Assembly: GCF_054482595.1 (NCBI RefSeq) | Contig: NZ_CM137008.1 | Strand: one strand, 5' to 3' | Length of the DNA stretch: 64,000 nt | Part shown: in pieces, positions 38,919 to 39,295 of the stretch | Position numbering within the stretch: the stretch's first letter is position 1 | How the letters are laid out: every line of letters begins with the position of its first letter | The notes under the pieces: model-generated | Seen by the model: only the letters and a program-made list of their open reading frames with translations | Told to the model about the DNA's origin: nothing | Databases searched by the model: none | Made by a program: the position numbers and the translations under genes

Positions 38919-39295
38919 TCTTGCCTGATGCGACGCTGGCGCGTCTTATCAGGCCTACGCAGGGGTAGAACCGTAGGTCGGATAAGGCGTTCACGCCGCA
39001 TTCGACAGCCGTTGCCTGATGCGACGCTGGTGCGTCTTATCAGGCCTACGCAGGGGTAGAACCGTAGGTCGGATAAGGCATTCACGCCGCATCCGACAGC
39101 CGTTGCCTGATGCGACGCTGGTGCGTCTTATCAGGCCTACGCAGGGGTAGAACCGTAGGTCGGATAAGGCGTTCACGCCGCATCCGACAGCCGTTGCCTG
39201 ATGCGACGCTGGTGCGTCTTATCAGGCCTACGCAGGGGTAGAACCGTAGGTCGGATAAGGCGTTTACGCCGCATCCGACACGCATTGCACGATGC
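38919..39295. repeat. Tandem BIME array: four direct copies of a 91-bp unit, each holding two inverted REP sequences
   Basis: The string GCCTGATGCGACGCTGG recurs at 38923, 39014, 39105 and 39196 (period 91 bp) with near-identical intervening sequence. Confidence 0.9.

Follow-up and report, generated by a model that had tools for sequence, protein, structure and literature searches.

A four-unit tandem REP array, most probably an expanded BIME-2, between dedD and cvpA of Escherichia coli

In the 64,000-nucleotide stretch of Escherichia coli DNA analyzed here (hereinafter the window), the spacer between dedD and cvpA harbors a tandem array of four 91-bp units, each made up of a Y-type REP and a Z2-type REP in inverse orientation. 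We are confident that this array (hereinafter the dedD array) is a bacterial interspersed mosaic element of type 2 (BIME-2), namely an expanded allele of the single-unit BIME-2 of E. coli K-12, which lies in the 3'UTR of folC-dedD and for which functions can be proposed by analogy. REP and BIME elements have been known in E. coli for many years, and the element class, the dedD-cvpA locus and the variability in the number of tandem BIME-2 units are all already published; a literature search recovered no paper mentioning dedD, cvpA and REP together.

The array consists of four near-identical 91-bp units

Tandem Repeats Finder recovered a 91-bp period with 4.0 copies, 98% matches, 0% indels and a score of 692 at 38921-39280, and a gap-free repeat finder gave start-to-start spacings of 91, 91 and 91 between the copies. 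Both the four-copy, 91-bp tandem with few substitutions described in the initial annotation and the periodicity check that it had suggested are thereby borne out. We place the array at 38921-39284 (units 38921-39011, 39012-39102, 39103-39193 and 39194-39284), a length of 364 bp with 98% identity between units; allele comparison shows this to be precisely the DNA absent from an E. coli allele with no copies (L003, discussed below). With the units set in register, four internal sites vary: one in the loop of the Y REP (unit position 20), two in the Z stem (69 and 82) and one in the Z loop (72). Unit 4 also deviates at its final four bases. The extent originally proposed, 38919-39295, encloses the array, with its edges set 2 nt too far to the left and about 11-15 nt too far to the right. 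The excess on the right covers TTGCACGATGCC (39285-39296), a 12-nt partial direct repeat echoing the unit start TTGCCTGATGCG, in place of which other alleles read TTGCCCGATGCC.

On the + strand each unit follows the same plan: TT, the Y-type REP GCCTGATGCGACGCTGG(C/T)GCGTCTTATCAGGCCTAC, a 14-nt linker GCAGGGGTAGAACC, the inverse Z REP GTAGGTCGGATAAGGCGTTCACGCCGCATCCGAC and a 7-nt linker AGCCGTT. The Y-type REP of unit 1 (38923-38958, + strand, CTAC at its 3' end) recurs at 39014-39049, 39105-39140 and 39196-39231, and all four, starting at 38923, 39014, 39105 and 39196, match the Y consensus with 0 mismatches; the sequence is identical to the REP query sequence of PMC11208160. The head-to-head linker (38959-38972 in unit 1) is present in every unit and is devoid of an IHF consensus. 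The Z2-type REP of unit 1 (38973-39006), which on the + strand reads GTAG and then the hairpin, recurs at 39064-39097, 39155-39188 and 39246-39279, and the corresponding starts (38973, 39064, 39155 and 39246, - strand) show 0-1 mismatch to the Z pattern. The tail-to-tail linker joins successive units at 39007-39013, 39098-39104 and 39189-39195. Each of the four units thus holds one Y (+) and one Z (-) REP, in agreement with the initial claim of two inverted REPs per unit. Across the 64-kb window the Y and Z patterns give 6 matches each versus 0.00 expected in shuffles, which excludes a chance origin.

Folding points to strong secondary structure at both the DNA and RNA levels. Folded singly as DNA, the Y REP has a predicted energy of -11.9 kcal/mol (z -4.1) and the Z2 REP one of -8.7 kcal/mol, and the RNA fold of 38905-39360 reaches -233 kcal/mol (z -11 versus shuffles). 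A GTAG lies 5' of the hairpin foot in every REP (on the + strand for each Z2 and on the - strand for each Y), and every predicted REP hairpin carries a stem mismatch or internal loop. GTAG 5' of the hairpin foot and a mismatched stem are the features recognized by TnpAREP (Ton-Hoang et al., PMC3333891); as 30-40-nt imperfect palindromes with both of them, the REPs of the dedD array conform to the definition of REPs as TnpAREP/RayT substrates. An inverted-repeat finder run with default settings returned 0 pairs in the array because the REP stems are short and interrupted, and the hairpins are evident by folding instead.

The repeat structure also accounts for a set of spurious open reading frames (ORFs). 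On the minus strand we found ORFs of 95, 61 and 74 aa at a 60-aa cut-off, along with shorter ones, and on the plus strand four of 35-43 aa. A Pfam search of the repeat ORFs gave no match, and RefSeq calls no gene at the array in the identical strain XH990. We accordingly rejected these ORFs, which overlap on both strands and follow the repeat, as genes; the three near-identical minus-strand ORFs had been correctly recognized at the outset as by-products of the repeat.

REP classes and linkers identify a BIME-2

The two principal BIME classes differ in REP type, linkers and copy number: BIME-1 combines y and z1 REPs in a single copy across a long L linker that often contains an IHF site, whereas BIME-2 combines y and z2 REPs in tandem, with short variable linkers and a copy number that differs between strains (PMC3333891). 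The dedD array displays each of the latter properties. Its Y and Z2 REPs alternate in inverse orientation; its linkers are short, measuring 14 nt and 7 nt, and a long L linker is absent; its tandem copies, 4.0 here, vary from 0 to 7 in other E. coli; and it is extragenic, bounded by the stop of dedD at 38913 and the start of cvpA at 39445. The Z REP is identical at 32 of 34 positions to the Z2 of REP325, a tandem REP array of K-12, and our assignment to Z2 (versus Z1) rests on this likeness and on a published catalog entry rather than on the original Bachellier consensus. The two differences from the REP325 Z2 fall on opposite stem arms, and one pair is preserved through them (C-G to T-A). These observations bear out the initial description of the array as a tandem BIME and refine it to BIME-2.

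The array resembles BIME-1 (RIB/RIP) in consisting of inverted, extragenic REPs at the 3' end of a transcription unit, and has none of the single-copy Y + Z1 arrangement or long, conserved, IHF-binding L linker that distinguish that class. The IHF consensus WATCAANNNNTTR finds no match in the array at 0 or at 1 mismatch. The suggestion in the initial annotation that the array binds IHF is therefore not sustained, such binding being a property of the BIME-1 L linker, and we discarded an IHF-binding BIME-1 reading on the strength of the short linkers, the tandem copies and the missing consensus.

The array precedes a conserved terminator-like hairpin

The genes around the array are all encoded on the + strand, in the order accD, folC, dedD, array, cvpA, purF, ubiX. 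The coding sequences of dedD (38251-38913, +, with its TAA stop at 38911-38913) and cvpA (39445-39933, +), which follow from the ORFs and from the RefSeq annotation of the 100%-identical strain XH990, confirm the flanks originally named. Among other strains, dedD shows an in-frame length polymorphism (651, 657 or 663 nt; L006, L013, L014 and L015 compared with 38251-38913 in the window). The RefSeq annotation of K-12 lists no repeat feature for the dedD-cvpA region.

The first REP stem begins at 38923, 9 nt past the dedD stop codon. Downstream of the array, a pattern match identified a terminator-like hairpin of 12 pairs (39315-39344) followed by a T-run (the whole at 39315-39354, +); with its GC-containing stem and the T-run TTTATTGATG it has the makings of a Rho-independent terminator, with termination being a prediction. 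Beyond it lies the PurR operator of cvpA-purF-ubiX, ACGCAAACGTTTTCTT (39373-39388, +), which is the reverse complement of the published site AAGAAAACGTTTGCGT (PMC3159470). For comparison, we fetched an outgroup set of about 100 Enterobacteriaceae species by a cvpA-start pattern and printed 14 of their dedD-cvpA intergenic sequences: in all 14 the hairpin, the PurR box and a TAGAAT motif are the same or nearly so, and the part of the spacer that varies across genera is that between the dedD stop and the terminator-like hairpin. Since the array sits in precisely this interval, we assign it to the folC-dedD 3'UTR and not to the cvpA promoter proper. The earlier placement of the array just upstream of the PurR-regulated promoter is thus correct as to position, the PurR box being 89 nt downstream, but overlooks the conserved hairpin that separates the two. 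As this hairpin follows the array, the latter is not needed to end the transcript and lies upstream of the transcript 3' end. A promoter search over 38200-39500 found none inside or just before the array, and one weak match inside dedD.

Unit number ranges from none to seven among E. coli strains

The complete genome of XH990, which was isolated from urine in China, matches the window at 100% identity over a 1601-bp region containing the array, and for this region a total of 43 complete-genome records (each a chromosome or a plasmid) reach 99% identity or more. We surveyed unit number more broadly by searching the flanks alone against 5,426 complete E. coli genomes and sampling 60 records spaced evenly over the ranking, with the number of units k obtained from the relation span = 1218 + 91k and checked by reading 16 loci. 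One unit, the state of K-12 and BL21, was present in 39 of the 60 sampled records, four units in seven, three in six and seven in two; four more had truncated or fused forms, one had no unit and one was split by an insertion sequence. A second sample, a 40-record spread, agrees with the first and contributed a six-unit allele. Altogether, the sampled E. coli show 0, 1 (about two-thirds), 3, 4, 5, 6 or 7 units; the comparison across genomes that had been called for thus finds the copy number to be variable.

Even close relatives differ: O157:H7 strains carry 3 or 4 units, the difference being exactly one internal unit, so that unit number could serve as a length marker. The K-12 unit in turn is equivalent to a hybrid of two units of the dedD array, its first half being that of unit 1 and its second half that of unit 4, as expected for internal gain or loss. 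Unit number changes readily, probably through unequal recombination or slippage among these near-identical repeats, whose similarity is too great for junctions to be placed. In strains of phylogroup-B2 type (APEC O1, ZH193 and 16843) the units of the array are more divergent.

In the 0-copy allele (L003), TACGGTC is joined directly to TTGCCCGATGCC; in occupied alleles the unit or units stand between these two sequences. This allele is most likely a deletion between copies of an 11/12-nt direct repeat, TTGCCyGATGC, with 39285-39296 as the likely site of the recombination. We also considered the 0-copy allele as an ancestral empty site and set this aside, as two-unit outgroups and the REPs of Citrobacter and Salmonella favor a secondary deletion. 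Non-integral alleles in three further strains (Rb-50, GF131 and CUVET20-416; L013, L014 and L015) show deletions within or between hairpins, as distinct from whole-unit steps: one of the non-integral forms comprises a full unit plus a second unit without about 20 nt of the Z2 left arm, and another is a 68-nt fusion of the Y left arm to the Z2 right arm.

The site is also occupied in other species

A two-unit form of this locus, with units 86-93% alike, occurs in E. albertii, E. whittamii and a divergent E. coli representative, and Citrobacter koseri, C. amalonaticus and Salmonella arizonae have REPs of their own at the dedD-cvpA site. This occupancy implies that the site has been in use by REPs since before these species split. 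Elsewhere in the family we observed unrelated tandem palindromes (CCCTCTCCC...GGGAGAGGG) between dedD and cvpA, e.g., in Pseudocitrobacter faecalis (L032), Enterobacter spp. (L044, L054, L133) and a Lelliottia sp. (L061). Like the dedD array, these are tandem and occupy the interval bounded by the dedD stop codon and the conserved terminator hairpin; unlike it, they belong to another sequence family, with periods of 43-59 and up to 7 copies in a 620-nt spacer. Their presence at the same spot may mark a recurrent landing site or convergent use.

Relationship to the K-12 orthologue and REP325

The K-12 orthologue is cataloged as 'BIMEs2', 83 bp, cvpA-dedD (Sutormin et al., PMC6379681 supplement). 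It shares with the dedD array the insertion point, the flanks, the first Y REP and the last Z2 REP, and differs in having one 91-bp unit in place of four; the three extra internal units show small variations in Z2 and, in the Y loop, a T in place of C. The same study mapped gyrase cleavage to the orthologue, with 2 sites in the presence of rifampicin + ciprofloxacin and 1 with microcin B17, i.e., in only 2 of 4 Topo-seq conditions (PMC6379681). The initial mention of gyrase binding accordingly has a published counterpart, in the form of cleavage sites in the single-unit orthologue.

REP325, located between yjdM and yjdN of K-12 and described as six Y/Z2 units (PMC4550694), has in our analysis a period of 100 and 5.8 copies. 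As in the dedD array, a Y-linker-Z2-linker tandem lies between co-oriented genes and is transcribed from the upstream gene, and the REPs of the two are identical at 34/36 (Y) and 32/34 (Z2) positions. The linkers of REP325 are 17 and 13 nt versus 14 and 7 nt in the dedD array, which accounts for its longer period (100 versus 91). The settings differ too: REP325 directly precedes yjdN within one operon, whereas the dedD array precedes a terminator-like hairpin and a separate, PurR-controlled promoter.

Proposed functions and turnover of units

The functions likely to apply to the dedD array, as a gyrase site or topological barrier, as an mRNA stabilizer or attenuator, and in the damping of dedD expression, are drawn by analogy from other BIME-2 elements. 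At the DNA level, gyrase is reported to cleave BIME-2 mainly in the y REPs, and BIME-2 elements to behave as strong, transcription-independent gyrase sites (PMC6379681); they have been implicated elsewhere as barriers to supercoil diffusion. The Y REPs of the dedD array could correspondingly be bound and cleaved by gyrase, the available gyrase data being those for the single-unit K-12 orthologue, and the array might form a topological barrier that separates the folC-dedD transcription unit from that of cvpA-purF-ubiX.

At the RNA level, the eight stable hairpins would be expected to block 3'-to-5' exonucleases and so to stabilize the upstream message, and they might attenuate read-through into cvpA-purF. 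REP325 acts as both attenuator and stabilizer in the yjdM-yjdN tandem pair, and its removal raised the downstream transcript about 8-10-fold and lowered the upstream one by 3-fold to 160-fold (bioRxiv 10.64898/2026.03.23.713779). REP effects are reported to be context-dependent and not uniformly stabilizing. Ribosome stalling has been reported for REPs within 15 nt of a stop codon (cited in PMC12306157); with the first hairpin 9 nt past the dedD stop, the array may therefore stall terminating ribosomes, which would damp DedD synthesis.

Units would be gained and lost by unequal recombination or replication slippage, possibly with the participation of the REP-associated transposase TnpAREP/RayT; TnpAREP recombines BIME in vitro and is a proposed driver of amplification (PMC3333891). 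The 0-unit allele, together with the two-thirds of sampled genomes that have one unit, indicates that the extra units are dispensable. It is conceivable, although we think it rather unlikely, that unit number acts as a heritable, quickly mutating dial that, through added hairpins or gyrase sites, sets folC-dedD mRNA stability, DedD output or the insulation of the purine-regulated cvpA-purF promoter from upstream transcription and supercoiling. If it did, lineages would stand at different settings (0-7 among strains, 3 versus 4 within O157:H7), and the unrelated palindrome arrays of other genera would reflect selection and not mere tolerance. The natural 0-, 1-, 3-, 4-, 6- and 7-unit alleles constitute a ready series for the effect of extra REP units in a 3'UTR.

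Alternative explanations

It is possible, though not the reading that we favor, that the array is selfish or neutral repeat DNA without host function, deposited and amplified by RayT/TnpAREP or by slippage and tolerated in an unconstrained stretch that separates the dedD stop from its terminator. The range from 0 to 7 units, the truncated or fused remnants and the insertion sequences, all apparently tolerated, are consistent with such dispensable DNA; so are the arrays of unrelated palindromes at the same spot in other genera, which fit a permissive landing site, the in vitro recombination of BIME by TnpAREP, and the retention in every REP of the GTAG and stem mismatch that this enzyme needs. 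Other features are harder to reconcile with the lack of a host role, namely that REPs at the site predate the E. coli/E. albertii/E. whittamii split, with REPs in Citrobacter and Salmonella arizonae as well, that the two changes on opposite arms separating the Z2 stem from that of REP325 preserve a base pair, and that the K-12 unit is a mapped gyrase cleavage site. A selfish origin is, moreover, compatible with real effects, and is thus not exclusive of the functional BIME-2 reading.

A further candidate is suggested by the Rfam family naRNA4 (RF02564), which has three matches on the transcribed (+) strand of the array, each covering Z2-linker-Y across a unit junction (38976-39046, 39067-39137 and 39158-39228), with scores of 79.5, 75.8 and 73.5 bits against a gathering score of 59.5. 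The array could on this basis be a cluster of naRNA4-like small RNAs that bind HU, bridge DNA cruciforms and condense the nucleoid; the model derives from REP325, and a published study of that array describes HU binding and effects on the nucleoid (PMC4550694). However, RF02564 effectively describes a Z2-linker-Y REP pair and so will match any BIME-2 of this kind (the opposite strand of the array itself scores 49-55 bits), and the promoter search gave no candidate within the array or immediately ahead of it. More recently, a group whose members include the senior author of the first REP325/naRNA4 report detected no measurable compaction of the nucleoid by REP325 or naRNA4 and saw no REP-REP contacts (bioRxiv 10.64898/2026.03.23.713779), and we hold an naRNA4-like role to be very improbable. 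We give still less weight to the notion that the 531-bp spacer with its four copies is an assembly artifact masking a K-12-like single unit in a spacer of 258 bp. A tract of 364 bp at 98% identity does exceed short-read length, and short-read assemblies may mis-size the dedD-cvpA array; yet the 1601-bp region recurs unchanged in XH990 and at high identity in the 43 complete-genome records, and independent complete genomes from various lineages, with 3, 4, 6 or 7 units, carry unit-specific substitutions of their own. Least credible of all, to the point of being negligible, are an IHF-binding BIME-1 (RIB/RIP) and a coding role for the repeated ORFs: IHF had been raised in the initial annotation and ORFs of 35-95 aa do occur on both strands, but the array has neither the long L linker nor an IHF consensus at 1 mismatch, BIME-1 is single-copy (PMC3333891), and the overlapping ORFs lack Pfam matches and RefSeq annotation alike.

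Insertion sequences at the locus and further REPs in the window

Each Y REP of the dedD array contains ATCAGGCCTAC, the natural target reported for IS621, a bridge-RNA recombinase element (PMC11208160). This 11-nt target occurs six times in the window, four times in the array (38948, 39039, 39130 and 39221) and again at 20621 and 26049. The array thereby supplies four natural bridge-recombinase targets, and two REP-seeking elements, IS621 and IS1397, have used the locus in other strains. In E. coli 2016C-3878 (NZ_CP029747.1; L004), IS621 sits in the second Y REP of the dedD-cvpA locus, with the insertion point ATCAGGCCT^AC and CT at both junctions. In E. coli JNE25-003 (NZ_AP045053.1; L016), a five-unit allele is broken by IS1397 (IS3 family), which has entered the third Y REP at its loop and is flanked by TGGC on either side.

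The window contains REP-derived sequences at three other places. Between a fimbrial adhesin gene and smrB, which converge, lies a REP cluster (20511-20699). In it, a long AT-rich linker (CAATTGAAT...TTGAATTTGCA) comes after each of two Y REPs spaced 79 bp apart, and a Z REP follows; the cluster looks like a BIME-1-type element with a duplicated Y and linker, in which the exact IHF consensus is not matched. Just after fabB (29515-29615) we found REP debris, comprising GTAGGTCGGA half-sites together with a 25-nt tandem, ACGCGCCAGCGTCGCATCCGACATT, in 2.3-2.8 copies, which appears to be a reiterated half-REP. A whole-window Rfam scan also identified a tRNA gene, unrelated to the array, at 3179-3250 (-; 63.4 bits). 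Finally, a single Y/9-nt linker/Z2 unit is located between the convergent yfcL and mnmC genes (26027-26102), and its Z2 is the same GTCGGAT...ATCCGAC variant as that of the dedD array.
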